DNA of 64,000 bases from an uncultured bacterium (GCA_963732385.1 CAVSZB010000007.1:1-64000), one strand, 5' to 3'; positions 2,489 through 33,363 are shown, counted from the stretch's first letter. Notes: generated by a model from the letters alone, not told the origin. Numbers and translations: made by a program.

Positions 2489-2620
2489 CTCGTGTCCTTT
2501 TCCCTGGAACTTGCAGCAGGTCGCCACCCTGCGGCAGCCGGTTTTTCTGACTCATGAATATAGCACATAGCCCGGCCGGTGGCGATGGCGCGGTGGCGGA
2601 GCTGGACGCCGGCAAACGCA

Positions 2621-2646
2621 GGAGCCGGACCGCGGGGTCCGGCTCC
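2621..2646 (-). terminator. Hairpin, probable terminator of the cytochrome gene
   Basis: GGAGCCGGAC/GTCCGGCTCC 10-bp perfect stem; weak U tract. Confidence 0.45.
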
Positions 2647-2689
2647 CGGTGACACGGTACGTTGGCGTGCCGGGCTGGTCGACGACTTT

Positions 2690-4585: not shown

Positions 4586-4947
4586 GGATCCGCCTCCTGC
4601 TGAGGTATCCGCCCGTCGTCGCGGCCGGCGGGATGGCGTGACCGCGACGGTGGGGTGAAATCCTATCAACCAAGTATGATCATCGGCGGACGACAGCCGG
4701 GTAAACTCAAAAGTGGAGCGAAAGCGGATGCCGGCATCCGACATCGTCGGCCTCGGGCGGACATTCCGCTTGACACCCTCAGCCCGGTTTTCAAGATGCC
4801 CATGTCCGCTAGGAATAGCGATTGCTGAGGATCAGCTCCGGAGCCTGCGCCAGGACGGCCGTGGCCGCGCGGGTCCAGGGTCGCCTTGCGGCGGCAGCGC
4901 CACCGGGAGCCCGCTGGCGACCGGGGACCCTCTTCCAGGGAGGGAAT

Positions 4948-7008: not shown

Positions 7009-7020
7009 GAGCGCCGCCCC

Positions 7021-15987: not shown

Positions 15988-16752
15988 TCAGGGCCGCACC
16001 CAGCGGTCGGCCCAGGCGGCGATGATTTCCCCGGCGTGGCGGGCGTCCCGCTCCGCGAGCAGCAGGTGGTCCGCGCCGGCCAGGGCGACGAAGCTTTTGG
16101 GATGGCGCGCGGCCCGGAAGAGGGCTGCGGCGTGGCGCACGTCGACGATCGGATCGCCGGGTGCGTGCAAAATCAGGAGCGGGCGGTCGAGGGCGCGCAC
16201 GGCGTCGAGCAGGCGCGTGGATTCGAGGTCGGCGAAGAAGGCGGGGCGCAGGCGGTAAGGGCGGCCGGCGAGGTTCAGTTCCGCCTCGCCATGCGCCAGC
16301 GTCTCGGCGCGCTTGGCGGCCAACACGCCGCCGAGGTGGGAGGGTTCGCTCGGGGTGGCCAGCACCGCGATGGCCGCGACCGTCGGCAGGGCCGGCGCCG
16401 CCAACAGCGCCGCGGCGCCGCCGAGCGAATGTCCGATCAGGAGGCGCGGCGCCTGGTGACGGTCCGCCAGCCAGGCGGCGGCCGTCAGGAGGTCGTCGCG
16501 GTTGGTGGCGAGGGTGGTCTGCGCGAAGTCGCCCCCGCTGTCGCCGACGCCGGTGAAGTCGAAACGCAGTACGGCCAGGCCGCGGGCGGTGAGTGCCCGC
16601 GCGATGTGCACGGCCGACTTGAGCTTGCGGCCGCAGGTGAAGCAGTGGGCGTAGAGGGCGAAGGCGCCGGGCGATTCCGTATCGGGCAGGTCGAGCGTGG
16701 CGGCCAGCGGCTCACCCGCGCGATTGGGAAAGCTGACGCGGCGGGAGCGCAT
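15988..16752 (-). CDS. Alpha/beta hydrolase (OsmC-associated type)
   Basis: YAHCFTCG, VLRFDFTGVGDSGG, GHSLGG nucleophile elbow, HPKSFVAL.GADHLL. Confidence 0.88.
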   Translation of the reverse strand: MRSRRVSFPNRAGEPLAATLDLPDTESPGAFALYAHCFTCGRKLKSAVHIARALTARGLAVLRFDFTGVGDSGGDFAQTTLATNRDDLLTAAAWLADRHQAPRLLIGHSLGGAAALLAAPALPTVAAIAVLATPSEPSHLGGVLAAKRAETLAHGEAELNLAGRPYRLRPAFFADLESTRLLDAVRALDRPLLILHAPGDPIVDVRHAAALFRAARHPKSFVALAGADHLLLAERDARHAGEIIAAWADRWVRP

Positions 16753-17000
16753 CCTGATCCCTTCCTCCGACTCCGGGCGGTTCGTCGCGAACGGTCCCGC
16801 CGGCAGCCGGCAGCCGGCGCATTGTAGAGGCCTCGGCGTCGGCCCGCAAGCCGGGGGCTGGACGAAAGCGCCGCGTATTGCTATCCTGCGCGCAACCCGC
16901 TCCCCCCTGCAGTCGCCGCGGCCGCGGATGCCCTTCGCGCCCCGCAGTTCGCGGTGTACGACCGCCGGAGCAGGCAATCGCCTGACACAGGAGGTCAACG

Positions 17001-17207
17001 ATGGCTGAGAAGCCCACCCCCGCAGCGCGTCCCCGCAAGACCGCATCCCGTGCGCCGGCCGCCCATCTGGGTGCCCGGCCTGATCAGGAATCGATCCGTC
17101 TGCGGGCCTACCAGATCTGGCACGAAAACGGCTGCCTGCCAGGTCGGGAAGTGGAGAACTGGATGCAGGCCGAGCGCGAGTTGAGCATCGTCGGTCGCGG
17201 GCACTGA
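17001..17207 (+). CDS. DUF2934-domain small protein
   Basis: IRLRAYQIWHENG...ENWMQAEREL; RBS GGAGG. Confidence 0.8.
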   Translation: MAEKPTPAARPRKTASRAPAAHLGARPDQESIRLRAYQIWHENGCLPGREVENWMQAERELSIVGRGH

Positions 17208-17283: not shown

Positions 17284-18405
17284 TCAGGGGGCGGTGGGTG
17301 ATGGACTGACGCCGCCGCCCGGCACTTCGCGGTGGCACTTGTGGCAGAGGGTGCCCTCGGTGGGGACGAACGTGTAGCTGTAGTCCTTGCGCGCGACATC
17401 ACTGGCGGTGGCGCCGGCGTCGCCCGAGGCGGGATGCGAATCGGCCATCAACGCCGCGTCGAAATCCCACCGTCCCGCCACGCGGAACGGGCTGGCGTGG
17501 GCCCGGTGGCACGAGAGGCACATGACCCGGTCGCTCGAGCCGGGGCCGGTGGTGGCGGCGGCGGGGTCCACGCTCTCCAGATCGACGGCGACCGCCTCGA
17601 ATGGCACCTGACCCCAGTACGAGGTCGCGATGGTGCCCCCCATGGGATCGTCGGCGCTGACGTACCGGTTGTACTGGTTGGCCCGACCCGCCTCCATACT
17701 CTCCCCGGACGGGTGGCTGAACCCGTGCGGCCCCACGTCGTGATAGAGGCCGTGGCAGTTCCCGCACCAGGCGCTGAAACCCGACTTGTAGACGGTGTGC
17801 CGGCTGTTCGTTTCGTCGCCGGCCCCAGGGGCCTCGGCGAGCGTGACCACGCTGTTGCCCCGGGCGAGGGGAGCGGGGGCGCTGAAGAGGAAGCGGGCGC
17901 CGTCCACGATCGGGCCTTCGCCCGCGCCGTAGAGCAGCCGGAATCCGGGCCGGCCATGGGGATCGTGACAACTGGTGCAGCCGAGCTGCGCGCTCGGAAA
18001 GGTGCCGCCGGGCGCGACGGAACGGACGCCGTCAGGGTCGAGTCCGCAGGCGGGGGCCACCACGTTGTGACCGTGCGTTTCGCCGCGGCTGCTGACCGGC
18101 ACGCCCCCCGCCAGCCAGGTCCAGGTGCGGGTCAGCCAGTAGAAATCGCCGCCGGGGCCGAAGCCGAGGCCGTTGGCGAACTGCCCATAATCGGCGTGGC
18201 AGCGCAGGCAGGTGTCGCTGGCCGTGCCTCCCACGAGCAGCGTCCGGCCGGTCTGGCCGACCACCGGCACGGTCTGCCCGTCCTGACTGCCGTGCATGAC
18301 GTGGCACGACGCGCAGGCCGCCGCCCCCCCGTCGTGGAAGGCGCGCGCGGCAGCGGGCACCAGCACGAGCGCTGCGAGCAGCCACCCGTATCGACAGACC
18401 GTCAT
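17284..18405 (-). CDS. OmcS/OmcT-family hexaheme cytochrome (second paralog)
   Basis: Signal peptide then FHDGGAAACASCHVMH; 6 CXXCH; PGGDFYW, GHNVV, APGG, PFE, CLSCHRAHAS; clearly paralogous to 18570-19673. Confidence 0.87.
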   Translation of the reverse strand: MTVCRYGWLLAALVLVPAAARAFHDGGAAACASCHVMHGSQDGQTVPVVGQTGRTLLVGGTASDTCLRCHADYGQFANGLGFGPGGDFYWLTRTWTWLAGGVPVSSRGETHGHNVVAPACGLDPDGVRSVAPGGTFPSAQLGCTSCHDPHGRPGFRLLYGAGEGPIVDGARFLFSAPAPLARGNSVVTLAEAPGAGDETNSRHTVYKSGFSAWCGNCHGLYHDVGPHGFSHPSGESMEAGRANQYNRYVSADDPMGGTIATSYWGQVPFEAVAVDLESVDPAAATTGPGSSDRVMCLSCHRAHASPFRVAGRWDFDAALMADSHPASGDAGATASDVARKDYSYTFVPTEGTLCHKCHREVPGGGVSPSPTAP

Positions 18406-18513
18406 CAAGCAGCTCCTCGTCTGGTGCCGCCGCAGCCGAAAACGAATTCGACGGCGCAAGGCAAGCATAGCGGCTGGCGTCCGGCCGCGCGATGAAAAAC
18501 CGGGAATCGAGAA

Positions 18514-18543
18514 GGGCCCCGCGGGGAGTTCCCCACGGGGCCC
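18514..18543 (-). terminator. GC-rich hairpin after the first omcS-like gene
   Basis: GGGCCCCGTGGGGA-ac-TCCCCGCGGGGCCC on minus strand, followed by TTCTC...TTTTT. Confidence 0.6.
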
Positions 18544-18569
18544 TGCGCAGCCGGGCGAGATGCTACGCG

Positions 18570-19673
18570 TCAGGGTCGCGCTTCGTCTCCGGCGTCCTTC
18601 GCGTGGCACTTGTTGCACAGCGAACGCTGGTTGTTGACGAAGGTGTAGTTGTAGTACTTGCGCGCCACGTCGTCCGCGGTCGCGCCGCCGTCGGTGGCCA
18701 GCGGGTGGGAGTCGGCGATGAAGGTCGCCGCGAAATCCCAGCGCCCGATGTCCTTGAACGGCGAGGCGTGCGAGCGGTGGCAGCTCAGGCACATGACCCG
18801 GTCCTGGGGATCCGGACCGGTGGTGTAATCCAGGGTGTTGACCGTCGTCAGATCGGCATTGACGGCTTCGAACGGCACCAGACCCCAGTAGGAGGTGGCC
18901 TGCGTGCCGGTGAGCTGGTCGTCCCCACTGACGTACGCGTTGTAGGTGGCGGCGACTTCGGAGCCCATCGCCACGCCGGTCGGATGCACGAAGTTGGTCG
19001 TGTTGGGCGAGTGCAGGGCGGTGTGGCAGTTGGCGCACCACTCGCTCATGCCCGACTTGTAGACCGTGTGCTCGTTGTTGTTCTCGAAGCCGTCGCTGTT
19101 TATCGTGCGGCGGCTGTTGCCCATGGCCAGGGGGGCCGGGCTGGTGAAGTCGTAGCGCGTGCCGTCGTAGACCGGGTTCTCGCCGCCGCCGTAGAGCAGG
19201 CGGAAGCTCTCGTTGCCGTGCGGATCATGGCAGCTCGTGCAGCTGAGGTACTGGCTGAGGAAGTCGCCACCCGGAGCCCGGGTGAGCTGCGCGTCCTGGA
19301 CCAGACCGTTGGCCGGCGAGATGATGTTGTGGCCGTGCGTGTTCCCGGCGGTCGACGACGTGCTGCCGTGCGAGCTCCAGGTGAACGTCTTGGTCAGCCA
19401 GTAGAAATCGCCGCCCGGCCCGAAGCCGGTGCCGGAGGCGAACTGCCCGTAGGCGGCGTGGCAGCGCAGACAGGTGTCGCTGGGGTTGCCGTACGCGAGC
19501 AGGTAGGCGTTGCCGGTCGGATGCGCCGCATCGACCGGAGCGCCGTTCTGGCTGTTGTGCATGGTGTGGCAGCCGGCGCAATACGCAACGCCGCCGTCAT
19601 GGAAGGCGAAGGCGCTGCCGCTTGCCAACACCAGAGCGGCCGCGGTCAGAATCAAAACTCGAAGCGCTTTCAT
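18570..19673 (-). CDS. omcS: OmcS-family hexaheme nanowire cytochrome
   Basis: 23-aa signal then FHDGGVAYCAGCHTMHNS; PGGDFYWLTKTFTW, CTSCHDPHG, GMSEWCANCH, CLSCHRSHAS, QRSLCNKCHAKD match Geobacter OmcS blocks as recalled; RBS GAGGAG. Confidence 0.9.
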   Translation of the reverse strand: MKALRVLILTAAALVLASGSAFAFHDGGVAYCAGCHTMHNSQNGAPVDAAHPTGNAYLLAYGNPSDTCLRCHAAYGQFASGTGFGPGGDFYWLTKTFTWSSHGSTSSTAGNTHGHNIISPANGLVQDAQLTRAPGGDFLSQYLSCTSCHDPHGNESFRLLYGGGENPVYDGTRYDFTSPAPLAMGNSRRTINSDGFENNNEHTVYKSGMSEWCANCHTALHSPNTTNFVHPTGVAMGSEVAATYNAYVSGDDQLTGTQATSYWGLVPFEAVNADLTTVNTLDYTTGPDPQDRVMCLSCHRSHASPFKDIGRWDFAATFIADSHPLATDGGATADDVARKYYNYTFVNNQRSLCNKCHAKDAGDEARP

Positions 19674-19772
19674 CTCCACTCTCCTCTCAGGATGCTAGGT
19701 CACTAGTGCTTGGCCGTTGAATGCGGGCCGCTCCGTCGTGGCGGACCGCCGAAACGCTGCGGCTGGCGAGGA

Positions 19773-20885
19773 CTACATGGACGCAGCTCCTTTCACGACG
19801 GGAGAGCCGGCGGACGCCGCAGCGTCCGCTCCCGTACCGGGTCCGCCCGCAGGGGCGTTCGAGGTATCGAGACTCAGAAGACGAAACACCTGGACCCGTC
19901 CCTCGAAGCCCTGCGTCACGTAGGCCAGACCGGCCTCGGGCGCGGTGGCGAGGGCCAGCGGGTGGTAGAAATCGCCGGGGCCGGCGCCCATCGCGCCGAA
20001 CTCCGCCCGGAAGGTGAAGTCACGGTCGAACAGCAGCAGCTTGTGGCGCATCCGGTCCAGCACGGCGAGGGTGCCGCCGGGCCCCAACGCCACACCCACC
20101 GGATAGATGAGGCCGCCGAGCGTCGAGCCGAGTTCACCGAACGCGGTGATCGGCTCCCCCTCGGGCGAGAGCACCAGGACGCAGTGCAGTTCGCCGCCCG
20201 GCACGTAGAGGCGCCGGTCGCGGCCTTCGCAGGGGCGGCCGAGACCCAGCTCGCCGGCCCGCTCGCCGCCCAGTTCGCGCTGCCACAGCAGCGCACCGGT
20301 GCGGGCGTCGTGCTTGGCGAGCAGCCCGGTGCCCGGATCGAGCGTGACGAAATTGCCGTCGCTGGTGATGGTCAGATGCAGGGGAGACCAGCCGGCGCGC
20401 GGCGGCTCGGCGCGCCACGCCAGCGGTTCGCCGCGCAGATCGAGGCGGCAAATGGTGCGGGTGGCCTGACTGTCGGTGTCGGTGCAGACGAAATTGCCGT
20501 CGCCGTCGAGACAACCGGAGGCGGGAGTCGACAGACCGGCCAGCAGGCCGGTACGGAAGAGCAGGGCGCCGCGACCGTTGAAGATCTGCAGCGCGGCGCT
20601 GACCGCATCGGTCACGCAGACTTCGCCGGTGACCGGATCGATGGCGATCGCCTCGGGGCGCGCGTCCGACGCTTCGCCGCGCTCGAGCAGGAGCGTGCGC
20701 GAATAGTCGAAGACGTAGATGATCGTGGCGCGGGCCGCAGTCCACGGCGCGAATGCGGCGAGGCCAAGGCCGAGGCAGAGCCCGAGCCGGGCGCACCGCA
20801 GGTGAGGGGCCGATGTTGCGCGGTACCGATTCACGATAACGATTATCCTTGGCGAGGTTCGTCGTGCCTGGCTCTGTGCTGTCAT
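19773..20885 (-). CDS. Secreted NHL-repeat beta-propeller protein (start uncertain)
   Basis: PEAIAID, FGELGSTLGGLIYPVGVA, FGAMGAGPGDFYHPLALA, GRVQVF. Confidence 0.85.
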   Translation of the reverse strand: MTAQSQARRTSPRIIVIVNRYRATSAPHLRCARLGLCLGLGLAAFAPWTAARATIIYVFDYSRTLLLERGEASDARPEAIAIDPVTGEVCVTDAVSAALQIFNGRGALLFRTGLLAGLSTPASGCLDGDGNFVCTDTDSQATRTICRLDLRGEPLAWRAEPPRAGWSPLHLTITSDGNFVTLDPGTGLLAKHDARTGALLWQRELGGERAGELGLGRPCEGRDRRLYVPGGELHCVLVLSPEGEPITAFGELGSTLGGLIYPVGVALGPGGTLAVLDRMRHKLLLFDRDFTFRAEFGAMGAGPGDFYHPLALATAPEAGLAYVTQGFEGRVQVFRLLSLDTSNAPAGGPGTGADAAASAGSPVVKGAASM

Positions 20886-20907
20886 TCACAAGGAAGTGAA
20901 TGCATAT

Positions 20908-20937
20908 ATTCTAGCGTTTCGCTAGGTGTTAAGTCAA
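20908..20937 (-). promoter_or_regulatory. Internal sigma70 promoter for NHL-omcS-paralog genes
   Basis: TTGACT-18nt-TAGAAT in an AT-rich patch; inverted repeat CTAGCG-aaa-CGCTAG overlapping -10. Confidence 0.6.
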
Positions 20938-21184
20938 TCTCATTGTGCAGGATAGGGCATTAATTTCTGAAAGGGAAACTCAAAATTGACCATATCGAAA
21001 CAGCGGAATCCCGTTTTTGCGGAGCTGCCCGAAGCCCATGTCTGCGGCGGGGATGGATCGTCCTGGAAGAGCTGATTCCGGCACGGCAGATCCCGAGGAG
21101 CCGTTCAGGTGGGGGGGCGGACCGGCGCCGCCCCACCCTTGTTCCCCGCGGGTCTGTCTGACGCCGGTCGTGCCGGCGCTCCTT

Positions 21185-24100
21185 TCACGACCGTTTGGGC
21201 CGCACCTTTTCCGTGTGGCACGGGACACAGAGGCGGCCGCCCGGATCATCGCGCAGCATCTTTTCGAACGCGGAGCCGTGCGGATCGTGGCAACTCACGC
21301 AGGTGAGCGGCTGCTGCGTGCGCGGGTCGATCACCTTCTCGCCCATGGGGTGATTCGCGTGCTCCTTGAAACTGTGGCAGCCGACGCAGGTGGCCTGCAG
21401 GCGGATCGCCAACTGGCCTGCGGGCGGGCTCACGTGGGGATCGTGGCAGGTGGTGCATCCCTTGCCCCCCTGCTCGGGGTGGCGGTGGGCGGCGTCGTTG
21501 GCGGTGGTCGCCTGCTCTGCGTGGCAGCGGCCGCACACCTGTGCCTGCCGGGCCGGCAAAAGCGGCGACGTGGGGGCGGTGTGCGGATTGTGACATGGCG
21601 TGCAGGACTTCTCGCCGGCCAGCGGACCGTGTGGCCGGTCGGTCTTGAGGTCCTGAGCCAGACCGGGGTGACAGGAGAGGCAGAGGGTCGATTCCGTGCC
21701 GCGCAGCGCGGCGCTGCCGGCCGGGTGGCAGGCGGCGCAGTTCCCCTGCGCGTACGGCTGGTGGACGTTGGCGAACGCCAGACCGGCCGTGGCCGAGGCG
21801 TGGGGCGCGTGGCACGACCGGCAGTCGGCGTCGGCCAGCGCAAAGCCGCGGTGTTTGGCGGTCAGCGCGGGGGAGCCGAGCTGGTGGCATTTGCCGCACA
21901 GCTCGCGCGGCGGGGCGACCAGCCCGCCGGTCTGGGTCGTGCCATGGGCGTCGTGGCATTCGCTGCAGCGCCCCTGCGCGAACGGGGCGTGCACGTGGAG
22001 ACGCCGCTGTTCGGCCTGCAGGTCGACGTGGCAGGTGAAGCAGAGCTTGCCTGGAGGCTGGCGCAGGAGCGCCGGCTGGGGCGATCCGTGGGGATCGTGG
22101 CAGGCATCGCACTTCCCCTCCCGCACCGGGGTGTGGGCGGTGCGGGTGTCGGGATAGAGGGAGGCGAGGTCGTGACAGGTGGCGCAGACGTCCGCGACAG
22201 GTCCCGCCGGGAGCAGCGCCTTGCCGGTCGCGGCGTGCGGATTGTGGCAGCCGAGACAGTCGCCGCCGGCGAACGGCGCGTGCTGCCGGGCGGCCGGCAG
22301 ATCGGCCGGGACGAGGCTGTCGTGGCACTGCAGGCAGAGTTCCTTCGGCGTGGTGATCGTGCCGGGTCCCTGGTGGCAGGTATCGCAGGCGCGCTCGGCG
22401 AAGCCGGGATGCGCGTTGGCGCGCAGCAGCGACGGCTGGGTGGCGTGGTGCGGTTCGTGGCAGGTCGTGCAGTTCACGCTGGTCCCGTCCCGGCCGAGGT
22501 GTTTGGCCTGGAAGCCGGCGCTCTTCTCGTCGTGGCACTGCAGGCAGAGGGCAGGCGCGGGGGTGCGCAGCATGCCGGCCCCTTCGCCGCCGTGCGGTAG
22601 ATGGCAGGTGAGACAGCCGTCCTGCGCGGGAGAATGCACGGATTTCGCAGCGGACGTGTCGACGATCTCCTGATGACAGACCGTGCAGACCAGCGGATCG
22701 CTCGCAGCCAGCAGGTGTGGCTGGTCGGAGCGATGGGCGTCGTGGCAGGCGGCGCAGTTGCTGTCACGGACCGGCGCGTGCGCCCGCCAGGCGACCGCCC
22801 CGGACGGGGTGGCCGCGACATCGTCGTGGCAGGTGGCGCAGATCGCCTTCGGATCCTCCTTCAGCAGTCCGGTTCGTTCCCCGCCGTGCGGCAGATGGCA
22901 GTCGAGGCATTGGCCGTCCGCCGTGGGGGCGTGCACGCTGCCCCCCTTGGGCGCCTGGGTGATGTCAGCGTGGCAACCGGAGCAGAGGGGGCCCGTCGCG
23001 CTTTTCAGCAGCGCCGGCTGTCCCGCAACGTGCGGCGCGTGGCAGGCGAGACATTCGCCGCGCTGCGCCGGCGCGTGGCTCGACGCCTTGACGATTTCGA
23101 GACGCACGGAGGCGTGGCACCCGAGGCAGAGGGAACCGGCGCCCTGCTTGAGCAGGCTGGCGTCGTTGCCGCCGTGCGGATCGTGGCAGACCGTGCACGC
23201 CTGCTTGACGAACGGCGCATGCCTGGTCGTGGCGGCGGCGCTCTGCTGCGCCAGCGGCTGGTGGCAGGAGAGACAGAGCTCGGCGGTGGCCTGTTTCAGC
23301 AGCGCCGGCTGCCCCGCCGCGTGCGGATCGTGGCAGCTGGAGCAGTGGCCCTCCCGCGCCGGCTTGTGCACCACCTGGCGGTTGAAGGGGCCGTTGTCAT
23401 GGCAGGTGGTGCAGACCGCCTGCTCGCTCCCTTTCAACAGGCCGGCGCGCGCGCTGCCGTGCGGATCGTGGCAATCGAGACAGGCGCCCTCGGCCGCCGG
23501 CGGGTGCTTGACCGCTCCTGCGGCGCCGACCTCGGCGTGACAGCCGGCGCACAGGCCGGCGGTGTCGGACACCGGCGCGATTTTGCCGGCGGCGTCGACG
23601 GTGTGGCAGCCGCTGCAGTCCATCGCGGCGACGGGGCCATGCAGCGACGCCAGCAGCAGGGACGGCTGATCGGAACTGTGGGGATCGTGGCAGGAGGAAC
23701 AGTTGGCGGTGGCGACGTCGAGCCCCTTGTGCTGCTTCGCCAGCGCGGCGCCCCCCTTGTGACAGGAGAGGCAGAGCGCGGTCGGCTCCTGCTTCAGCAG
23801 GGCCGGCTGCGTGGACCCGTGCGGGTCGTGGCAGGCCTTGCAGCCGCCGTCTTTGAGCGGCTTGTGCACCTTCGCGCGGGTGAAGGCTGCGCGGTCGTGG
23901 CAGGTGAAGCAGGAGGCGTCGCCAGCGGCGTTGAGCAGCGCGGACTGGCCGGAGCCGTGAGGGGCGTGGCAGGCGGTGCAGCCGCCGGTGCGCAGTGGCT
24001 GGTGCAGCTTCGTGCCTTCGGGGAAGGTCGCCAACGCCTTGTGGCAGCCGGTGCAGAGGGCCGGGCCCTGCGCCTGCAGCACGAGGCTGCCCACGATGCC

Positions 24101-24310
24101 GTGGGGCTTGTGGCACCCTTCGCACTGGCCGGAGCGCAACGGTTCGTGGGCGTGGGGCGCCTTCATGGCCCGTTTCATCTCCGCGTGGCACTCCACGCAA
24201 CTCTTCGACTTGAACGGACCGGCGGCGCGAGCCGGTGCCGGCGCGACCGTCAAAAGGGTCAGGCCCAGGGCGGCGAAGCAGATGACGAGGGGCTGGCTCC
24301 ACCGTGTCAT
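21185..24310 (-). CDS. Giant multiheme cytochrome c, 42 CXXCH, doubled-CXXCH repeat family
   Basis: 1041 aa, signal peptide, repeat HxP-x5-CxxCHxPH-x11-CxxCH; manual count of 42 motifs. Confidence 0.93.
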   Translation of the reverse strand: MTRWSQPLVICFAALGLTLLTVAPAPARAAGPFKSKSCVECHAEMKRAMKAPHAHEPLRSGQCEGCHKPHGIVGSLVLQAQGPALCTGCHKALATFPEGTKLHQPLRTGGCTACHAPHGSGQSALLNAAGDASCFTCHDRAAFTRAKVHKPLKDGGCKACHDPHGSTQPALLKQEPTALCLSCHKGGAALAKQHKGLDVATANCSSCHDPHSSDQPSLLLASLHGPVAAMDCSGCHTVDAAGKIAPVSDTAGLCAGCHAEVGAAGAVKHPPAAEGACLDCHDPHGSARAGLLKGSEQAVCTTCHDNGPFNRQVVHKPAREGHCSSCHDPHAAGQPALLKQATAELCLSCHQPLAQQSAAATTRHAPFVKQACTVCHDPHGGNDASLLKQGAGSLCLGCHASVRLEIVKASSHAPAQRGECLACHAPHVAGQPALLKSATGPLCSGCHADITQAPKGGSVHAPTADGQCLDCHLPHGGERTGLLKEDPKAICATCHDDVAATPSGAVAWRAHAPVRDSNCAACHDAHRSDQPHLLAASDPLVCTVCHQEIVDTSAAKSVHSPAQDGCLTCHLPHGGEGAGMLRTPAPALCLQCHDEKSAGFQAKHLGRDGTSVNCTTCHEPHHATQPSLLRANAHPGFAERACDTCHQGPGTITTPKELCLQCHDSLVPADLPAARQHAPFAGGDCLGCHNPHAATGKALLPAGPVADVCATCHDLASLYPDTRTAHTPVREGKCDACHDPHGSPQPALLRQPPGKLCFTCHVDLQAEQRRLHVHAPFAQGRCSECHDAHGTTQTGGLVAPPRELCGKCHQLGSPALTAKHRGFALADADCRSCHAPHASATAGLAFANVHQPYAQGNCAACHPAGSAALRGTESTLCLSCHPGLAQDLKTDRPHGPLAGEKSCTPCHNPHTAPTSPLLPARQAQVCGRCHAEQATTANDAAHRHPEQGGKGCTTCHDPHVSPPAGQLAIRLQATCVGCHSFKEHANHPMGEKVIDPRTQQPLTCVSCHDPHGSAFEKMLRDDPGGRLCVPCHTEKVRPKRS

Positions 24311-25632
24311 GGCTTCTCCCCTTTCGGGGTGAGTTGGGCGAGTTCGCCCGCGACCAGCGCCCGGGCATCGGGCAAAATGCGCAGCGGTGTGGCCGCCTCG
24401 AGGCGCCGCAGCGCCTCGGCCAGCACTTCGCGCGTGCGCTGCGACTTCATCATGCCGAGCACGCGGTCGCGACTCGCCGCCAGCGGCGCCGGCTCCGCCG
24501 ACTCCATTTCGCTGACGACGGCCACCGCCCAGCCGCCCGGCACTTCAAACGGATCGAGCACCTGGCCCGCGGCCACCTCGCCCGGCTTGAGGCCGAGCGC
24601 CTGCGGCTCGATCCACTCCGCCGGGAACGGGCGGATGTCCGGCAGTACTTCGGCCGTGCGTCCGACCAGCCAGCGGAACTTGGCGCCCTGGCGCAGCCGG
24701 TCGTGGAAACCGCGGGCCGCGGCCTCGTCCTTCAGGAGCGCGCTGTCGACCTTGATGCGCGGCGCAGGCCTGAACTGCTCGAGGTGGTCGCGGTAGAACG
24801 CCTCGATCTCCTTCGGTTGCGGCTTGAAGGAGAAACCGAGCAGATTGTTGAGCGTCTCCTCGCGCACGAGATCGCGCTCGAGCAGACGCGCCAGCCGGAG
24901 CGCTTCGGGGCGCGCGGCAAGGCCCTGCAGACGCGCCTGGCGGGCGAGCACCCGTTCCACCACCCATTCATCGCACAGCTTGTCGCGTGACTCCGCGGTT
25001 TCGGGTCGTCCCTGCAGGCCATGGAAGTAGGTGAAACGGATCTGCCTGGTGAGTCCCTTGACCGTCAGTTGGCCGTCGGGGACCACGGCGATCACATCCT
25101 CACGTTCGCGCAGGCTCTGCTGTACGAGCGAATCGGCAGAGCCGTAGTCGAGCGAGGCGAGGAGCTTCGCGTCGACCTTCACGCCGAAGCGCTGCTTCAG
25201 CCGCTCGATGTATTCGCGCACTGCCGCCTGCCGGGCCTCGAGCACCTCCGGCATCTGCCCGGGCACGGACCGGGCGACCGAATCGAGCAGCGCGGTCATG
25301 CCCTGCCGCCCCACGGCGTCGGCGATCTGCCGCCGGACGGTTTCGCCTTCGTCGAGGCCGAGGCGCCGGCCCTCCTGCTCCAGCAGCGTATTCTGGATCA
25401 GCCGCCTCAGGACATCCTCCGCGGGGGGCAGCACCAGCGGGGCATCTCCCTTGCGCTGCGCCTGCATCCGGTCCAGCTCGATCCGGAGATCGGAAACCCG
25501 GATCGTGTCGTTGTCGACGATGGCCAGCTCCCGGTCCAGCAGCGGCAGCGCGGCCGGCAGCGACGTGGGGAAAGCCAGCGCGAGCAGCAGCAGCAGACCG
25601 GCGCGCGGGCGAGGCGATTGGCGGGGTGTCAT
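24307..25632 (-). CDS. SurA/PpiC-like periplasmic chaperone
   Basis: LAIVDNDTI...L, VLRRLIQNTLLEQEGRRLGLD, EIEAFY..H.EQF, degenerate rotamase domain; stop overlaps next start. Confidence 0.75.
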   Translation of the reverse strand: MTPRQSPRPRAGLLLLLALAFPTSLPAALPLLDRELAIVDNDTIRVSDLRIELDRMQAQRKGDAPLVLPPAEDVLRRLIQNTLLEQEGRRLGLDEGETVRRQIADAVGRQGMTALLDSVARSVPGQMPEVLEARQAAVREYIERLKQRFGVKVDAKLLASLDYGSADSLVQQSLREREDVIAVVPDGQLTVKGLTRQIRFTYFHGLQGRPETAESRDKLCDEWVVERVLARQARLQGLAARPEALRLARLLERDLVREETLNNLLGFSFKPQPKEIEAFYRDHLEQFRPAPRIKVDSALLKDEAAARGFHDRLRQGAKFRWLVGRTAEVLPDIRPFPAEWIEPQALGLKPGEVAAGQVLDPFEVPGGWAVAVVSEMESAEPAPLAASRDRVLGMMKSQRTREVLAEALRRLEAATPLRILPDARALVAGELAQLTPKGEKP

Positions 25633-25633
25633 G

Positions 25634-26716
25634 TCACGAAGCCTCCGGGCGTGGGGACGAGGGGGATGGCAGACGCTCAACCGCCTGCCGATAGCGTTCC
25701 AGGAACGAGACGGAGCGGATGGCGCCGAACCAGCCGGTGCCGGTGGCGGCTTCGGCGTAGATCTCGGCGCGCTCCAGCAGGCGCACCAGCCCGGTATCGA
25801 CCAGTCGCCAGGTGAGGGCGAACGGAGGGAGGGCCGGGCGCAGGACAGGACCCGAATCCGCGGCAGAGGCGGAGCCGGTGGCTCTCCCGGGATCCCAGCC
25901 GATGACTTCCGTCACCGCAACCGGGGCGACGCCAAAGGCGACGCGCAGCGCCTGGCAGCCGGCGCTGTCGAGGGCGGCCGCTCCACGGCCGCGATCATGC
26001 AGTACGCCGAGCACGAGCGCCGGATCGGGCAGACGCCAGTGACCGCTCTGCAACAGCCGCTGCAGCAGGCAGATGGTGACGACTTCGCCGGCGAGCGGAT
26101 CGAGATCCACCACGCGCGTCGGCAGCAGCAGCAGGGGCTCCCCGGCCGGTTCCGACGCGGGGACGCGCCGCGCGGACAGTTCGTGGCCGGCGCGTTGCAG
26201 GGCCGCCAGCCAGGCCGCTTCGTCCGGATCGCGGCCGACCTTCGCTTCCGCGACGTCGGCCCACAGGACCTGACCGTCGCCGGTGTCGATGCCGCGGAGC
26301 GTGGCGACCAGGCGCCCGGGATGGAGGGAAACCTGGGCGATGACAACCTGCGTGGCGCCGAGTTCGGTGGCCGCCGCGTCGAGCAGGCGGCGGTCGAAAC
26401 CGAGGGGGGAGCGCAGACGCAGGCGTTGTTGCAGCGGGGCCCACGCGGCCGGGGCCACCGGTTCGAGCCCCTCGCGGGCGCACAGCGCGGCGAACAGCCA
26501 CGCGCCCTCCTGGCGCAGGGCCGTCAGGGGTATCGGTCCGGCTATCCCGGCGGCGCTGGAGAAGAACAGGGCGATGGCCGCGCGCCCTTCGGCCGCCGGG
26601 TCGGTGCGACTGTCGGCAGGGACCGCCGCGGCAGCGCCGGCCGGCGTTGTCAGCAGCGCCGCCAGCGCCAGCAGGAACCACCGGACGGGGCCGGCGCGTC
26701 GGGGCCGGCGCGTCAA
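25634..26716 (-). CDS. Secreted protein, possibly tandem CsgG/TolB-N-like folds
   Basis: Signal peptide; twice-repeated pattern LRGIDTGDGQVLW / WRLVDTG... Confidence 0.6.
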   Translation of the reverse strand: MTRRPRRAGPVRWFLLALAALLTTPAGAAAAVPADSRTDPAAEGRAAIALFFSSAAGIAGPIPLTALRQEGAWLFAALCAREGLEPVAPAAWAPLQQRLRLRSPLGFDRRLLDAAATELGATQVVIAQVSLHPGRLVATLRGIDTGDGQVLWADVAEAKVGRDPDEAAWLAALQRAGHELSARRVPASEPAGEPLLLLPTRVVDLDPLAGEVVTICLLQRLLQSGHWRLPDPALVLGVLHDRGRGAAALDSAGCQALRVAFGVAPVAVTEVIGWDPGRATGSASAADSGPVLRPALPPFALTWRLVDTGLVRLLERAEIYAEAATGTGWFGAIRSVSFLERYRQAVERLPSPSSPRPEAS

Positions 26717-27282
26717 AAGAGCGACCCCAGGGCTTTACGGACCACATCGTGGCTCACGGCGTGGAGGCTGGCCGAATCGCCCCCGAACAGCTTGCGCCAG
26801 ACGGACGAGCCGCTGCCGTGCACCTCGGATTTCCACACCACCGCGCCGGTTTCGGTTTCGAGCAGGCCGAATTCCGCGGTGACCACGTAGACCCGGTTGC
26901 GGCCGAGGGCTTCGGGCCCGCAGTCCATGACCGTGCCGGTGAAGATCCCCTCGACGCCGAGCCGCTTGCCCAGCTCCAGGATCTGCGCGGGCGAGAGGGG
27001 GGCAGCCGGATCGAGGCGGAGTTCGCGCAGCGCGGCGAGCGTTTCGCCCGGTTCGACGAGCACGAGTCCCTTGCCGGTGCGCAGAAGCTCGGTCAGGAAA
27101 AGCGATTCCACGCGCGTGCCGGCGCTGCGGTCGGTGCTGAGGTTCTGGAACGGCAGGATCGCGCAGCGCCGGATGCGGCTGAAATCGACGTCGGGGTGCA
27201 CGAAAGTGGTGGCGCGGGGCGAGCAGCCGCCCAGGGCAAGGATCAAAGCCAGGAGCGCCGGCAGGGAAAATCTGCGTGCCAT
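26713..27282 (-). CDS. CsgG/GNA1162-like lipoprotein
   Basis: Lipobox LGG-C; AILPFQNLS, LGKRLGVEGIFTGTV, LLETETGAVVW. Confidence 0.78.
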   Translation of the reverse strand: MARRFSLPALLALILALGGCSPRATTFVHPDVDFSRIRRCAILPFQNLSTDRSAGTRVESLFLTELLRTGKGLVLVEPGETLAALRELRLDPAAPLSPAQILELGKRLGVEGIFTGTVMDCGPEALGRNRVYVVTAEFGLLETETGAVVWKSEVHGSGSSVWRKLFGGDSASLHAVSHDVVRKALGSLF

Positions 27283-27338
27283 CCGTCCACTCTCCCTTTC
27301 CGGGGGCGGGGCGGTCCCGCCAAAGGTAGGATCCCGGG

Positions 27339-29516
27339 TCAGAAAGTCCAGTTTACCCTGGCGTTGCTGCTCAACGGCCAGCTCAGCTCGCCACGCTGCT
27401 CGAAACGGGTCTTCTCGAGGCCCGCCTCGATGGTCAGCCGGGCCCGTGGCCGCCACATCGCCGTAAAGCCGGCGCCGCGCTGGGCGAGGTCGGCCCGCGT
27501 ATCGCGGAAATCGTTCAGGCTGAACTGGAACTCCACGCTGCCTCCGCCGAGCGGCGTCCAGGAGGCGGAGTGGCGGAACAGCCAGTCGTCGCTTTCACGC
27601 ACCTGGTAGCGCACCTGGCTGCTGAACGACAGCAGCGGCCACGGCGACCAGCGCACCAGGCTTTCGGATTCGTTGAATGGGGTGAAGCCGGCGCCGGCCG
27701 CTGCGTCGACCCAGCGACGGCTGTGCCGCAGGTCGATCCCGAGGTTCACCCGCGGCGCGGCCCGCACGAGTCCGGTTACGACCCAGGCGCGCGAGTCGCC
27801 GCCGTAGGCTTCATCCCGGACCCGACCGTACGTGATGCGTTCGCTGACCGTAAGGGCCGGCAGGATCTCGTGGTTCACCTTCAGGGCATACGTGTCCGAA
27901 ACCCGTGGCTGCACGCGACTGCGGTCATCCTGCCGGATCCACGACAGGCCGGTGGCCAGGCGGGTGTTGTTGCCGCGCGATACGTTCAGGCCCCAGAGGC
28001 GCGTGTCGGTGTCGGCGCGCGAGGCGCTGCGCAGGCGCTGGGTCTCCCAGGAGGCGCCGGCGCTCCAGAGTTGACGGGTCCAGCGCAACTGGCTGGCCTG
28101 CCCGGTGCTGCTGAGATTGTTGGCGTCGTTGTCGAAGCGACGTTCGTCAAGATGGAGAGCGTAGCGGAACTGCCAGTCGCGTGCGACCTGGTAGACGAGG
28201 TCGGTATCGAGCCGGTGGCGCACGGTCCGTTCGTGTGTCTCGGCGCGCGTGGCCTCCTGTCGGTCGTACAGCTCCAGCTCGGTCACGTAAAGATCCGGCA
28301 GGGTGGGGCCGTCCTTCTCGTTGACCAGCTTGAAGAAGCGCGCCCGGACCGGTTGTCCGCCCGGAGGCACGGGGAAGGCGATCTCCCAGCCGCGCAGCGA
28401 GGCGTCCCATTCCCGCCAGGTGATCGTGGACGCGCTGTCGGGCAGTTCGCTCCAGAGCCGGCCCTCGGGGTCGTCGCTCACGAAGAGTCGCCAGCGGATG
28501 AGACGGTTGAACACCACGAGGCGGTCGACGTAGAGCAGCGCGAGGCCCAACTCCTCGGTGGCGCCGAAATCGTAGCGCAGATTGCGGGCGTCTCCGCCGA
28601 ACTCGTGCCCGACCGTGGCGGCGTCGCCGAGGTTGACCGTGGTCGGCGTCGCCCGGTCATTGTCGTAGAGCGCGCTCACCTGGATGGTCGATGGTTCGAG
28701 CGGGTCCTCGATCAGGGGGGTGTCGTCGATCCGGAACCCACCGGTCAGGGGGATGAGCAGATTGCGTCCTCCGGTGAGCGGGCCGGTCAGGGTCTGCGTG
28801 AAGAGGCGCGTCTGGGCGTCCAACGACAGCCGGACGCGGGCGCCCAGGGCGAAGGAGCCACGGTAGTCGAGGGCATGCGTGCGGAAGAGATTCCGGTTGT
28901 CGAGCGTGCGGTCGCGGTGGTCGTTCTCGGTATAGGTGTAGGCCAGATCGCTTCCCGCCGGGAGAGCCAGCCGCGCCCCGGCGCTGCCGGTGCGTTCGCG
29001 GGTGCGCGAGGCGTCCACGCCGGAGTCGTCGCGACGATCGAGTTCGGCGCCGAACCAGCGCAGGCGCAGCCGCAGCCGGCCTATCTCGTACTGCGACCAT
29101 CCGCCATATTCGAACCGTTCGTCACGCCGCCCCGCCAGCCCCCCGCCGAAATAGTCGCGCCGGTAGCTCTCGCCGCTCAGGCCGAGGCGGAGGGTGCCGC
29201 GGCGCAGCGTCAGATTCACGTTCGGCTGCTGGGTGATCGTCTCGTAGTCCGACAGCTCCCCGGCGAAATCGCTCCAGTTCGCCTCCCGCAGCGCGCCGTA
29301 GCGGATCTGCAGATAGAGAGCGCGCGAGAGGTCGATGCGCTGGTCGAGCCGGCCCTCGGACTGGACGCTGCGGGTGGTGTAGGCGCTCGTCCCCGCCCGC
29401 CCCTCCTGCCGGAAGCCGCGCAGGTCGGCCCAGCCGTCGAGCGCGCGGACCGGGGCGGACGCCAGCAGCACGATGATGAGCGTCCAGAGCAGAGGCAGCG
29501 GCCCGGGTCGAGCCAC
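27339..29516 (-). CDS. Large outer-membrane beta-barrel with inserted soluble domain (GTG 29516 preferred over ATG 29651)
   Basis: Signal peptide LLWTLIIVLLASAPVRA, amphipathic strands, C-terminal NARVNWTF. Confidence 0.75.
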   Translation of the reverse strand: MARPGPLPLLWTLIIVLLASAPVRALDGWADLRGFRQEGRAGTSAYTTRSVQSEGRLDQRIDLSRALYLQIRYGALREANWSDFAGELSDYETITQQPNVNLTLRRGTLRLGLSGESYRRDYFGGGLAGRRDERFEYGGWSQYEIGRLRLRLRWFGAELDRRDDSGVDASRTRERTGSAGARLALPAGSDLAYTYTENDHRDRTLDNRNLFRTHALDYRGSFALGARVRLSLDAQTRLFTQTLTGPLTGGRNLLIPLTGGFRIDDTPLIEDPLEPSTIQVSALYDNDRATPTTVNLGDAATVGHEFGGDARNLRYDFGATEELGLALLYVDRLVVFNRLIRWRLFVSDDPEGRLWSELPDSASTITWREWDASLRGWEIAFPVPPGGQPVRARFFKLVNEKDGPTLPDLYVTELELYDRQEATRAETHERTVRHRLDTDLVYQVARDWQFRYALHLDERRFDNDANNLSSTGQASQLRWTRQLWSAGASWETQRLRSASRADTDTRLWGLNVSRGNNTRLATGLSWIRQDDRSRVQPRVSDTYALKVNHEILPALTVSERITYGRVRDEAYGGDSRAWVVTGLVRAAPRVNLGIDLRHSRRWVDAAAGAGFTPFNESESLVRWSPWPLLSFSSQVRYQVRESDDWLFRHSASWTPLGGGSVEFQFSLNDFRDTRADLAQRGAGFTAMWRPRARLTIEAGLEKTRFEQRGELSWPLSSNARVNWTF

Positions 29517-29528
29517 TCCGGGGGATAC

Positions 29529-29688
29529 AAAAAAACACCCCGCGAGGCGTGGGGTCTGTCTCGGGTGGGAAGCGACGCAGCCCGGCGAGGGAAGCAGGCC
29601 TCCCGGCCAGACCCGATCTGCGGCGCGCATGGCCCGCGAAATCACCTGCATGGCGCTGTGATATTAACAAATCAAGGCTTTGCAAGCA
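29529..29688 (-). promoter_or_regulatory. Promoter and 5' leader with terminator/antiterminator pairing
   Basis: TTGCTT-17nt-TAATAT with extended TG; hairpin ACCCCACG-cct-CGCGGGGT followed by GTTTTTTT just before the first gene. Confidence 0.5.
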
Positions 29689-30420: not shown

Positions 30421-30597
30421 GTGGCGGGGCGGTGACGGTTGTGTCTGAGCGCGTCAGCCGGGGGCGACGGCCGCGGGGCGCGCAGGTCGGCGGCGTGGGG
30501 CGCCGGCGGTTCGTGCGCGCGTCAACGGCGGGCGGCGCGGCGCTTGCTGACCTCGTCCCGCCCGTCAACGGGCGGAAGGGGCGGGGAGGCTGGAGTG

Positions 30598-32196
30598 GTG
30601 ACGCGCATTCGCAGCGGCGCGGTCGAAGGCATCGACGGCTACGGCGTCACGGTCGAAGTGGATGCCGGGCGGGGCCTGCCGGCCTTCCACATCGTCGGTC
30701 TGCCCAATGCGGCGGTTCGCGAGAGTCGCGAGCGGGTGTTGGCGGCGCTGCGCAACAGCGGCCTGCCGCTGCCTCCCGGGCGCGTCACCGTCAATCTGGC
30801 CCCCGCTGATGTGCGGAAGGAGGGGGCCGCCTTCGATCTGGCGATCGCGGTCGGCGTCACCGAAGCGTGCGAGGATCGCGGCGCCCACGCCGGCGCTCAC
30901 GGTGACGCGGTGCTGTTGGGGGAACTGTCCCTCGACGGCGCGTTACGACCCGTGCGTGGCCTGCTGGCGATCGTGCTGGCCGCGGCCGCGCGTGGCGATC
31001 GCCGTTTCGTGGTGCCGGCGACGCAGGCGTGGGAGGCGCGCCTGGTGAACGGGGTGGAAGTTCTTGGTGCGACGACGCTGGCGGAGGTGCTGAACTGGCG
31101 ACGGCGCGGCACTGTGCCGGCCGGGGTCGCGGCGCGACCGCCCGCCGTGGTGGGCTCCGGGGGAGGGGATGAGGCGGCGTTCTGGCTCGGCCTTGCCGGT
31201 CAGCCCGAGGCGCAGCGGGCGGCGTTGATCGCCGCAGCCGGCCGGCACAATCTCCTGCTGGTGGGGCCGCCCGGAACCGGCAAGACCCGACTCGCCCGCG
31301 CCATTCGGGGGTTGTTGCCGCCGTTGGCGACCGCGGAGGCGCTCGAGGTCGCCCGCATCCACGGTGCGGCCGGCACGTTGCGCGGTGCCGCCCTTTCGCG
31401 GCGACGCCCGCTGCGTGCGCCGCACCACACCATCACGCGCGCGGGTCTGCTCGGCGGCGGATCCCCGCTGCGCCCCGGCGAGGCGACGCTCGCCCACCGG
31501 GGGATGCTGTTCCTCGACGAACTGTCGGAGTTCGCGCCGGCGGTGCTCGACGCCCTGCGCGAACCGCTCGAAGAGGGGCGCGTGGCGGTGGCACGGGGCA
31601 GTGGTGCGCGCAGTTTCCCGGCCGCGTTTCTCCTGGTCGCCGCGATGAACCCGTGTCGCTGCGGCTACCTGGGCAGTCTTCGGCGTCCCTGCCGGTGCGC
31701 GCCGTCGGCCGTGGCGCGCCATCGCGCGCGCATCTCGGGGCCGTTGCTGGATCGCGTGGACCTGTTCGTGGAAATGACCGAACCGCCGGCGGGACTGTTG
31801 TCCGGCTCGCCCGGGACGGTGGCGGAGGAGGGCGCGGCGACCGACGCGAACCTGGCGCGCTGGCGGGCGCTGCGAGGGCAGGTGCGGGAAGCCTGGTCGC
31901 GGCTGGGCGCGCAGTTGCCGCCTGGCTGTGAGCGGCGTCTGGATCCGCGGGGATTCGCCGTGGCGGCCGGCCTCGACCGCGAGGCGCGCGATTGTCTGGA
32001 GGAGGCGCGTCTGAACCTGTCGCTCTCCGTGCGTGGCGCCCTGCGCTGCGCACGGGTGGCGCGGACGATCGCGGTCCTGCGCGGCGCCACGAGCACCGGA
32101 CGGGAGGAGGTGGCGGAAGCCCTGGGCTACCGTCTGGAGTCGCTCGCCGGCTGGGCGCCAGGCGAAGAAGCGGATGCGGGAATTGCCCTGGGGTAG
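30598..32196 (+). CDS. comM: YifB/ComM Mg-chelatase-like AAA+ ATPase
   Basis: IVGLPNAAVRESRERV, VNLAPADVRKEG, GPPGTGKT, RAPHH, LFLDE, AAMNPCRCG, ISGPLLDR. Confidence 0.92.
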   Translation: MTRIRSGAVEGIDGYGVTVEVDAGRGLPAFHIVGLPNAAVRESRERVLAALRNSGLPLPPGRVTVNLAPADVRKEGAAFDLAIAVGVTEACEDRGAHAGAHGDAVLLGELSLDGALRPVRGLLAIVLAAAARGDRRFVVPATQAWEARLVNGVEVLGATTLAEVLNWRRRGTVPAGVAARPPAVVGSGGGDEAAFWLGLAGQPEAQRAALIAAAGRHNLLLVGPPGTGKTRLARAIRGLLPPLATAEALEVARIHGAAGTLRGAALSRRRPLRAPHHTITRAGLLGGGSPLRPGEATLAHRGMLFLDELSEFAPAVLDALREPLEEGRVAVARGSGARSFPAAFLLVAAMNPCRCGYLGSLRRPCRCAPSAVARHRARISGPLLDRVDLFVEMTEPPAGLLSGSPGTVAEEGAATDANLARWRALRGQVREAWSRLGAQLPPGCERRLDPRGFAVAAGLDREARDCLEEARLNLSLSVRGALRCARVARTIAVLRGATSTGREEVAEALGYRLESLAGWAPGEEADAGIALG

Positions 32197-33110: not shown

Positions 33111-33363
33111 TGATCGGCTCCCGTCAGGCTCTGTCGCGTTCCCCGGCTTGGCCCCGCAAAGCGCTCGGGCGCGCCCGTCGGCGCGGCGCAGGAACAGTGG
33201 GGATGAACGAAACACGGCCCTCCCGTGGGGAATAGGCGGGCCAACTCTGTACAATGTCAGGTGCTGGCGTGCCGGTGTCAACTGCAAAGCTGATCGGTTG
33301 CCCCACCGTGTGCATCGGCCGTATATTCGCTCGAGTCGCATCCCTGACACGGAAAGGCCGCTC

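Follow-up and report, generated by a model that had tools for sequence, protein, structure and literature searches.

The DNA analysed here, hereafter the window, is a stretch of 64,000 nucleotides from an uncultured bacterium (GCA_963732385.1 CAVSZB010000007.1:1-64000) with a G+C content of 70%. Positions 17284-29651 of the window hold a cluster of eight open reading frames (ORFs), all on the minus strand and all with high third-position G+C, which encode relatives of the nanowire cytochrome OmcS together with counterparts of the proteins encoded in the omcS-companion (osc) cluster. From the upstream end, the genes encode an outer-membrane beta-barrel in the OscE position (27339-29651, 770 aa), a PelC-like lipoprotein in the OscF position (26713-27282, 189 aa), a protein with a PelC-like C-terminal domain in the OscG position (25634-26716, 360 aa), a SurA/parvulin chaperone in the OscH position (24307-25632, approximately 441 aa from the ATG at 25632), a 42-heme cytochrome in which the OscI and OscJ positions are fused (21185-24310, 1041 aa), an NHL-repeat beta-propeller (19773-20885, 370 aa) and two OmcS-family hexaheme cytochromes, hexaheme A (18570-19679, 369 aa) and hexaheme B (17284-18405, 373 aa, with the start codon placed at 18405). 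An earlier note on this DNA had described eight co-oriented genes with tightly coupled junctions in the middle of the cluster. All eight are present on the minus strand, and the junctions 26716/26713, 25634/25632 and 24310/24307 are overlapping or adjacent as claimed. Two of the starts given there are revised: the barrel ORF begins at 29651 instead of 29688, and the lipoprotein, whose frame is open to 27456, most likely begins not there but at the internal ATG at 27282 (MARRF..., with the lipobox LGGC). Tight coupling does not hold for all eight genes, because a gap of 299 nt separates the 42-heme gene from the NHL gene and contains a putative sigma-70-like promoter on the minus strand. This site (TTGACT-18-TAGAAT, 20908-20937) is a consensus match at 10 of 12 positions; two such sites occur in the region against 0.6 expected. 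The flanking genes, an alpha/beta hydrolase (15988-17046, minus strand) and a ComM/Mg-chelatase-type gene (30436-32196, plus strand), are unrelated, and the unit therefore consists of these eight genes.

Both hexaheme ORFs carry six CxxCH motifs. Hexaheme A matches OmcS (6ef8_A) with an E value of 2.7e-55 and hexaheme B with an E value of 3e-40, and OmcS (6ef8_A/6nef) is the sole PDB sequence that matches either protein at E values up to 1. The alignments run near full length, from the first mature residue (FHSGG/FHDGG) to the C-terminal CNKCH motif. Hexaheme A has the mature N-terminus FHDGG, and hexaheme B, which is 59% identical to hexaheme A, keeps both FHDGG and CHVMH. We take the histidine in the CHTMH motif to be His16 of mature OmcS, which serves as a ligand to a heme of the neighbouring subunit. 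Its equivalent is retained in both proteins: the CHTMHNS stretch of hexaheme A is identical to that of OmcS, CHVMH of hexaheme B aligns with CHTMH, and the corresponding histidine (H41) is invariant in all 11 aligned members of the family. A histidine bond between subunits of the OmcS filament is described in the literature, with no residue number stated in the excerpt drawn on here (PMC12307469; the other papers cited below are likewise represented by excerpts). The E values, the six motifs and the His16 equivalent identify both hexahemes as true members of the OmcS family, in line with the earlier description of the pair as OmcS-like. The host genome has no OmcS-like genes besides these two, and the tandem arrangement is retained in relatives.

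The 42-heme cytochrome carries a Sec signal peptide, and its 42 CxxCH motifs, counted in the ORF at 21185-24310 and agreeing with the number of hemes claimed before, follow each other at a regular spacing of 23-25 residues. Judged by sequence comparison, the protein is a fusion of a 26-heme cytochrome of the OscI position and a 16-heme cytochrome of the OscJ position. We compared it with 75 loci from many phyla, obtained in a scan with an OmcS-family alignment that used one genome per species; the set includes two cultured Geomonas species and no G. sulfurreducens, and the patterns of the locus scan (G[PA]GGDFYW and CTSCHDPH) did not recover the locus of G. sulfurreducens PCA. Adjoining complete 26-heme and 16-heme gene pairs occur in 10 of the 75 loci, and single 42-heme ORFs are confined to the window, L004 and L067, the last of which has Eisenbacteria in its record title. 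In all four loci compared by BLASTP, which come from different lineages, the best segments on the 42-heme protein cover residues 4-648 for the 26-heme cytochrome and residues 647-1034 for the 16-heme cytochrome. The seam is marked by an odd motif spacing of 17 residues at heme 26/27.

Among the 208 genomes of the host phylum, 61 contain a match to the 42-heme protein at an E value of 1e-100, and 41 have a stop-free frame that aligns with at least 95% of its length. The other matches include two of the same coverage with one in-frame stop, five cut by contig ends and one split in two, and the 26-heme part alone is found in 12 genomes. The 42-heme gene is followed by one or more hexaheme genes on the same strand in 35 of the 208, as read from match coordinates. 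Single in-frame stops were observed in the 42-heme orthologues G096:C8:24235-27357 (TGA) and G111:C8:41306-44359 (TAG), and one in-frame TGA also interrupts an orthologue of the hexaheme gene (G124:C3:637962-638639); these could be sequencing errors, pseudogenes or cases of recoding. In the close relative L023 (5512-8635), the 42-heme counterpart is spread over three overlapping frames with 18, 8 and 6 CxxCH motifs, probably as a result of assembly frameshifts or of gene decay. A different situation is met in two families of the phylum, f8 and f9, where seven genomes have stop-free whole-length alignments to the 42-heme protein at 36-38% identity and the phylum scan finds no OmcS-like gene at an E value of 1e-20. 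Because full-length frames are present in these families and no OmcS-like gene accompanies them, the 42-heme-type cytochrome may also work without OmcS-type partners.

The gene preceding the 42-heme cytochrome was thought to encode a SurA/PpiC chaperone, and the similarity searches agree. The protein matches Pfam Rotamase_2 with an E value of 5e-7 and 31 bits (cut-off 27), the SurA_N models score just below their cut-offs, and a profile of the OscH family matches HP0175 (2e-19), SurA (9.8e-18) and PrsA (8.4e-17). The NHL propeller is likewise recovered as named, with 32.2 bits to Pfam NHL (cut-off 20). In a FastTree phylogeny of 28 NHL proteins, read without support values, it groups with the type encoded before omcS and not with the type encoded after OscJ.

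The two proteins between the barrel and the chaperone had both been labelled CsgG-like. Neither the 189-aa nor the 360-aa protein has a Pfam match at an E value of 0.01, to CsgG or to any other family, or an NCBIfam match, and structure and profile comparisons place them with PelC instead. The AlphaFold2 model of the 189-aa protein has a predicted local distance difference test score (pLDDT) of 91.4. In a Foldseek search, ranks 1-10 of its matches are all PelC (5t0z_C with an E value of 1.4e-10 and TMt 0.74; range 0.70-0.81). CsgG appears as a remote fold match at rank 28 (4uv2_P, E value 4.5e-6, TMq 0.46), below PelC, GNA1162, CT253, FlgT and LpoB. The OscF-family profile also matches PelC chains directly (9h80_C at 9.6e-10 and 5t11_A at 2e-9). 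The OscG family, for its part, aligns with the OscF family over residues 190-352 (hhalign probability 99.6%, E value 9.7e-24), and its profile matches PelC 9h80_C at 4.9e-15 in two stretches. On these profile comparisons the 360-aa protein ends in a PelC-like domain that makes up its C-terminal half, and its N-terminal half may be another, degenerate PelC-like copy. A lipoprotein signal is found in one of the two proteins: the 189-aa protein has a signal peptide with the lipobox LGGC, and the signal peptide of the 360-aa protein lacks the lipobox cysteine. Our literature search, which extended to titles and the beginnings of abstracts, found no link between the osc proteins and PelC; one may be stated in the 2025 paper by Shen et al. 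(Cell Chem Biol 32:239) that defined the osc cluster.

The 770-aa protein has no Pfam or NCBIfam match of its own. Its AlphaFold2 model is all-beta, with a mean pLDDT of 80.2, a predicted template modelling score (pTM) of 0.62 and approximately 29 long strands. Foldseek and VIA-align searches with this model return large outer-membrane barrels only, with nearly tied scores: the VIA-align Z-scores are 17.6 for Cir, 16.4 for BtuB, 16.1 for MtrB (6r2q_B), 14.0 for LptD and 13.4 for PelB (9h80_M). The description of the protein as a beta-barrel is therefore well founded in an all-beta model that resembles large outer-membrane barrels, and nothing more specific can be assigned. An insert at approximately residues 295-466 resembles galactose-binding or discoidin-like domains (7nit_A, Z 12.4, root-mean-square deviation (rmsd) 3.1). 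A hidden Markov model (HMM) seeded with the barrel and iterated over the ORFs of the 75 loci grew from 3 to 6 to 33 matches, and the final search collected 34 ORFs, including the window gene and a Geomonas gene of 762 aa (L036:14134-16422). Pfam matches occur in a few of the members examined (OMP_b-brl in 4 of 22, F5_F8_type_C_2 in 4 of 22, Porin_4 in 3 of 22), and the family profile matches PDB sequences only marginally (CBM32 at 0.018 and OmpK36 at 0.053). As a lead only, the nearest clusters of the barrel in the ESM Atlas are annotated as hypothetical proteins and are commonest in Thermodesulfobacteriota.

The PelC likeness of the lipoprotein, whose closest solved relatives serve the exporter of the Pel exopolysaccharide, and the galactose-binding-like insert in the barrel would both fit an export system for polysaccharide or another non-cytochrome polymer that merely adjoins the cytochrome genes. 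We regard this as very improbable. In loci from many phyla, OmcS-like and 26-/16-heme genes are accompanied by the barrel, the PelC-like and the chaperone genes, no pel biosynthesis genes are found among them, and the flanks of the cluster are occupied by the hydrolase and the ComM-type gene.

The osc operon of G. sulfurreducens includes omcS, omcT and oscC, with oscI corresponding to GSU2495 and oscJ to GSU2494, and the proposed roles of its products are folding for OscH, secretion for OscE, OscF and OscG, and morphology for OscD (PMC13194489). An eight-gene block, GSU2500-GSU2493, always occurs with a hexaheme gene of the GSU2501 type, and GSU2495 encodes 26 hemes (bioRxiv 10.1101/2025.11.06.686851). 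The corresponding region of Geomonas silvestris, a member of Geobacteraceae, begins with an NHL gene and two hexahemes, continues with a 467-aa lipoprotein in the OscD position and the 762-aa protein (E), and is completed by two more lipoproteins of 199 aa (F) and 388 aa (G), a protein of 600 aa (H), the 26-heme cytochrome (I) and a further multiheme gene (J). Five of the window proteins that accompany the hexahemes have direct counterparts there by phmmer: the 189-aa protein matches F at 3.7e-24, the 360-aa protein matches G at 2.3e-5 (9.8e-51 with the Geomonas-seeded family profile), the chaperone matches H at 1.2e-13 (2.3e-112 with the family profile), the 42-heme protein matches I at 1.2e-135, and the NHL protein matches the NHL gene upstream of the Geomonas hexahemes at 4.2e-15. 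The 770-aa protein has no direct match to E, and it is the iterated HMM that joins it to this protein and to the gene in the same position in approximately 30 loci. The internal order E-F-G-H-I is identical in the window and in Geomonas silvestris. The proposal that the companions of the hexahemes belong to osc-like gene classes is thus upheld, by family as well as by order.

The same association extends to other lineages. When the eight window proteins were searched against the 75 loci with tblastn, the F-type lipoprotein was found near an omcS-like gene in 31 loci, and in locus L004 all eight window genes were matched in the same order. The arrangement in which the NHL/hexaheme module comes after the helper module is shared by the window, L004, L023, L034, L042 and L061.

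The host belongs to a lineage outside Geobacter, as had been suggested. It shares a GTDB family with genome G121, to which a 2-kb stretch of the Candidatus Krumholzibacteriia locus L003 is 100% identical, and its best named protein matches carry Krumholzibacteria or Eisenbacteria labels; given the shared family and these labels, it is not a member of Desulfuromonadia. We presume that the host phylum is to be counted in the Fibrobacteres-Chlorobi-Bacteroidetes (FCB) group, a membership that does not appear in the NCBI taxonomy lineage. Of the 208 species-level genomes of the phylum, 57 carry an OmcS-like gene, all from one class: in 47 of 90 genomes of the host family, in 5 of 12 and 4 of 10 genomes of two others, and in none of the remaining 95. 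This distribution supports the view that electron export through cytochrome filaments is not a speciality of Geobacter. In the host genome, 23 frames have three or more CxxCH motifs, which fits a lifestyle based on cytochrome-mediated electron export, and three Cytochrom_C_asm matches that indicate cytochrome c maturation. No small PpcA-like triheme frame occurs in this count of frames with at least three motifs, the sole three-motif frame being 264 aa long. Across 20 sequencing runs, mostly sediment and freshwater metagenomes, at most 23% of the sampled words were found, and two RNA runs reached 12%.

The novelty that the earlier note attached to the finding was overstated, as OmcS in Krumholzibacteria is already in print. 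The presence of OmcS and Cyc2 genes in this group was reported in 2021 as a first (PMC7914226), OmcS homologues are described from diverse bacteria (PMC10954620), and metagenome-assembled genomes of Krumholzibacteriota are noted for their many multiheme proteins (PMC11495043). In the excerpts returned by our literature search for Krumholzibacteriota with cytochrome and nanowire, only this general multiheme content is mentioned. The 2021 report bears on the direction of electron flow, since the Krumholzibacteria genome with OmcS and Cyc2 came from a bioreactor fed with iron and methane and its authors, in the excerpt, left the direction open (PMC7914226). The system of the window might accordingly be imagined to run in reverse and to draw electrons inward, whether from Fe(II), from a cathode or from a syntrophic partner, instead of serving outward respiration. 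Multiheme chains are reversible and sequence cannot decide between the two directions for that reason; nothing in the window favours uptake, and we consider it quite improbable.

Taken as a whole, the cluster is probably the Krumholzibacteriia version of the osc system, predicted to fold, export and electrically feed hexahemes that likely polymerise into conductive filaments. Polymerisation, secretion, charging and long-range respiration can reasonably be inferred from the encoded proteins. The hexahemes would be exported by the Sec pathway and then loaded with heme in the periplasm; the genome has cytochrome c maturation genes. The SurA/parvulin chaperone would hold or fold them there. A ring of PelC-like proteins beneath the barrel could form the exit through the outer membrane, by analogy with PelC under PelB (9H80), and electrons would cross the periplasm along the 42-heme protein and so reach the filament at its base. 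Outside the cell, one or both hexahemes would polymerise through the conserved histidine. A separate promoter in front of the NHL gene, if active, might let the filament module be expressed alone.

Several observations weigh against this interpretation. The window hexahemes are approximately 60 residues shorter than OmcS, and in an IQ-TREE phylogeny of 59 hexahemes they fall in a clade separate from those of Geobacteraceae. Both belong to a nine-member clade (SH-aLRT 95) nested in a 34-member clade (99) of Krumholzibacteriota, Ignavibacteriota, Acidobacteriota and others, and the hexahemes of Geobacteraceae and Nitrospirota form a 15-member clade of their own (100), apart from that of the window; this tree comes from a quick search, with the careful search unfinished, and is rooted at the midpoint. 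Only OmcS is known as a wire-former, the functions of OmcT, OscC and OmcJ being unknown, and wire-formers are not distinguishable by sequence (bioRxiv 10.1101/2025.11.06.686851). On the side of the exit pore, the barrel model with its approximately 29 strands is much larger than PelB, and the N-terminal half of the 360-aa protein, taken alone, is not clearly PelC-like in this copy (probability 8% against the OscF family). The reference for the comparison is Geomonas silvestris (L036/L069) and not G. sulfurreducens PCA, and the Osc letters follow from gene order and domain type as in the cited papers.

Nor is the cluster complete, as had been claimed. A profile of the OscD-position family has no match at an E value of 0.01 in the host genome, which is 95.8% complete. 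The same profile scores 7e-192 and 1.6e-152 in two control genomes and only marginally (approximately 1e-3) in two genomes that have the gene order of the window, and phmmer detects no OscD-type propeller among the window ORFs. These searches relied on phmmer and a curated alignment, which replaced an OscD-seeded iterated profile that had begun to collect NHL and OmcS-like ORFs by its second round. An NHL protein of the OscK type also appears to be absent from the cluster, the sole NHL gene there grouping with the pre-omcS type in the tree described above.

The main rival to a filament system is a porin-cytochrome conduit across the outer membrane, in which the barrel would enclose either the 42-heme protein or a hexaheme in the way that MtrB encloses MtrA, surface reductases would be formed by the hexahemes as monomers or small oligomers, and the PelC-like proteins and the chaperone would only aid the insertion of the complex. 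Among the barrels compared, none has a lower rmsd to the 770-aa model than MtrB (6r2q_B), with 5.0 at its Z-score of 16.1; its alignment of 386 residues is the second longest (401-413 for LptD), and its Foldseek TM (0.34/0.39) is the highest, which counts against a PelB-like exit. This match is generic, because the Z-scores are nearly tied with those of 22-strand TonB-dependent receptors. The conduit also gains from the OmcS paralogues, which are not known as wire-formers (see the preprint cited above), and from the two families in which full-length 42-heme relatives occur with no OmcS-like gene detected at the threshold used. Set against these points, the inter-subunit histidine is invariant in the family, and a separate DmsE/MtrA-family decaheme gene is already present in the window at 5737-7008. 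Furthermore, the homologous genes of G. sulfurreducens are reported to act on the folding, secretion and morphology of OmcS nanowires (PMC13194489). We judge the conduit unlikely, and retain the osc-type filament system as the preferred interpretation.

A bolder extension of the filament interpretation would see in the cluster a minimal, self-contained nanowire kit of eight genes that dispenses with the OscD- and OscK-type propellers, in which the 42-heme protein, as a single unbroken wire through the periplasm, plugs into a PelBC-like pore that exports folded, heme-loaded subunits. The pore itself, as part of the same extension, would combine a ring of the PelC type with the very large barrel above it, whose insert would form a sugar-binding-like lid. 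We put this forward as a tentative proposal, doubtful both for the kit and for its pore. Were it true, a PelBC-like architecture would have been recruited for the secretion of protein filaments, and this compact version of the FCB type would be the simplest set for reconstitution in a foreign host.

The OmcS assembly machinery is said, in the title of the paper by Shen et al., to be widespread and ancient. The system described here belongs to a kind whose wide occurrence is already on record, of which it is a rearranged and slightly reduced member, and it leaves the known picture of the OmcS/osc system unchanged. It indicates that in an uncultured, sediment-type phylum this machinery is regularly present. 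The variant is compact, apparently with two propeller genes fewer, two periplasmic cytochromes merged into one and the helper module set apart from the filament module. Such features help to define which parts of the machinery are dispensable and make the cluster a candidate for heterologous reconstitution.

Elsewhere in the window, the plus-strand gene at 5737-7008 encodes the decaheme cytochrome of the DmsE/MtrA family (TIGR03508, 194.6 bits against a cut-off of 192.2). The next gene at 7021-9036 (plus strand) encodes 671 aa that belong to no Pfam family and resemble the GSU2204 family only weakly, and the pair at 5737-9036 may form a second conduit, of the porin-cytochrome type, approximately 10 kb from the osc-type cluster. 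A 536-aa ORF at 3134-4744 (minus strand) encloses a stop-to-stop frame with three CxxCH motifs (3238-4029) and weakly resembles the model NF041198 for UshA-like (seleno)proteins (E value 5.7e-6, far below the cut-off). Matches to ribosomal protein S1 are split between two overlapping minus-strand ORFs, 269-1711 and 1702-3048, the upstream ORF containing the N-terminal S1 domains and the downstream ORF those that come later; rpsA could be truly split here, or the division could stem from a frameshift or from an error in the assembly. Beyond the cluster, the region at 32902-36187 (plus strand) encodes two FG-GAP repeat proteins, the second of which ends in a FlgD Ig-like domain.

Among known systems, the likeness to CsgG (4UV2), the comparison made in the earlier note, is confined to a remotely similar lipoprotein alpha/beta core; CsgG forms its own barrel, whereas in the window a separate barrel gene adjoins. 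With the MtrCAB complex (6R2Q) the cluster shares a large barrel of similar geometry encoded together with multiheme cytochromes. By contrast, no sequence similarity is detected, a decaheme of the MtrC type is absent from the cluster, and the PelC-like and chaperone genes have no part in Mtr. The PelBC exporter (PelC 5T0Z, 5T10 and 5T11; PelBC 9H80) resembles the window system in that PelC-like proteins are encoded beside an outer-membrane barrel. The differences are the absence of pel genes, the presence of two distinct PelC-like proteins instead of one, and a predicted barrel that is far larger and has a domain inserted into it; a heme protein would be the cargo, and both a twelve-fold ring of the PelC type and its docking under the barrel are putative here. 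OmcS itself (6EF8/6NEF), the subunit of micrometre-long conductive filaments, shares with the window hexahemes the six CxxCH motifs, the mature N-terminus FHxGG, the CHxMH motif and a near full-length alignment. It differs in having 407 mature residues, compared with approximately 344-350 in the window proteins, where several loops are shorter.

The closest known system is the osc cluster (GSU2493-GSU2505), from which the window departs in several respects. The helper module comes first and the NHL-hexaheme module second, the reverse of the osc order, a single 42-heme protein stands for OscI and OscJ, and two hexahemes of a separate, shorter clade take the place of three. A propeller of the OscD type is not found in the host genome, the cluster appears to lack an NHL gene of the OscK type, and the host is a member of Krumholzibacteriia. 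What the two have in common, as tested against Geomonas silvestris and approximately 30 other loci, is the combination of OmcS-type hexahemes and an NHL propeller with a barrel, two lipoprotein-type proteins, a prolyl isomerase and 26-/16-heme cytochromes encoded in the same internal order.

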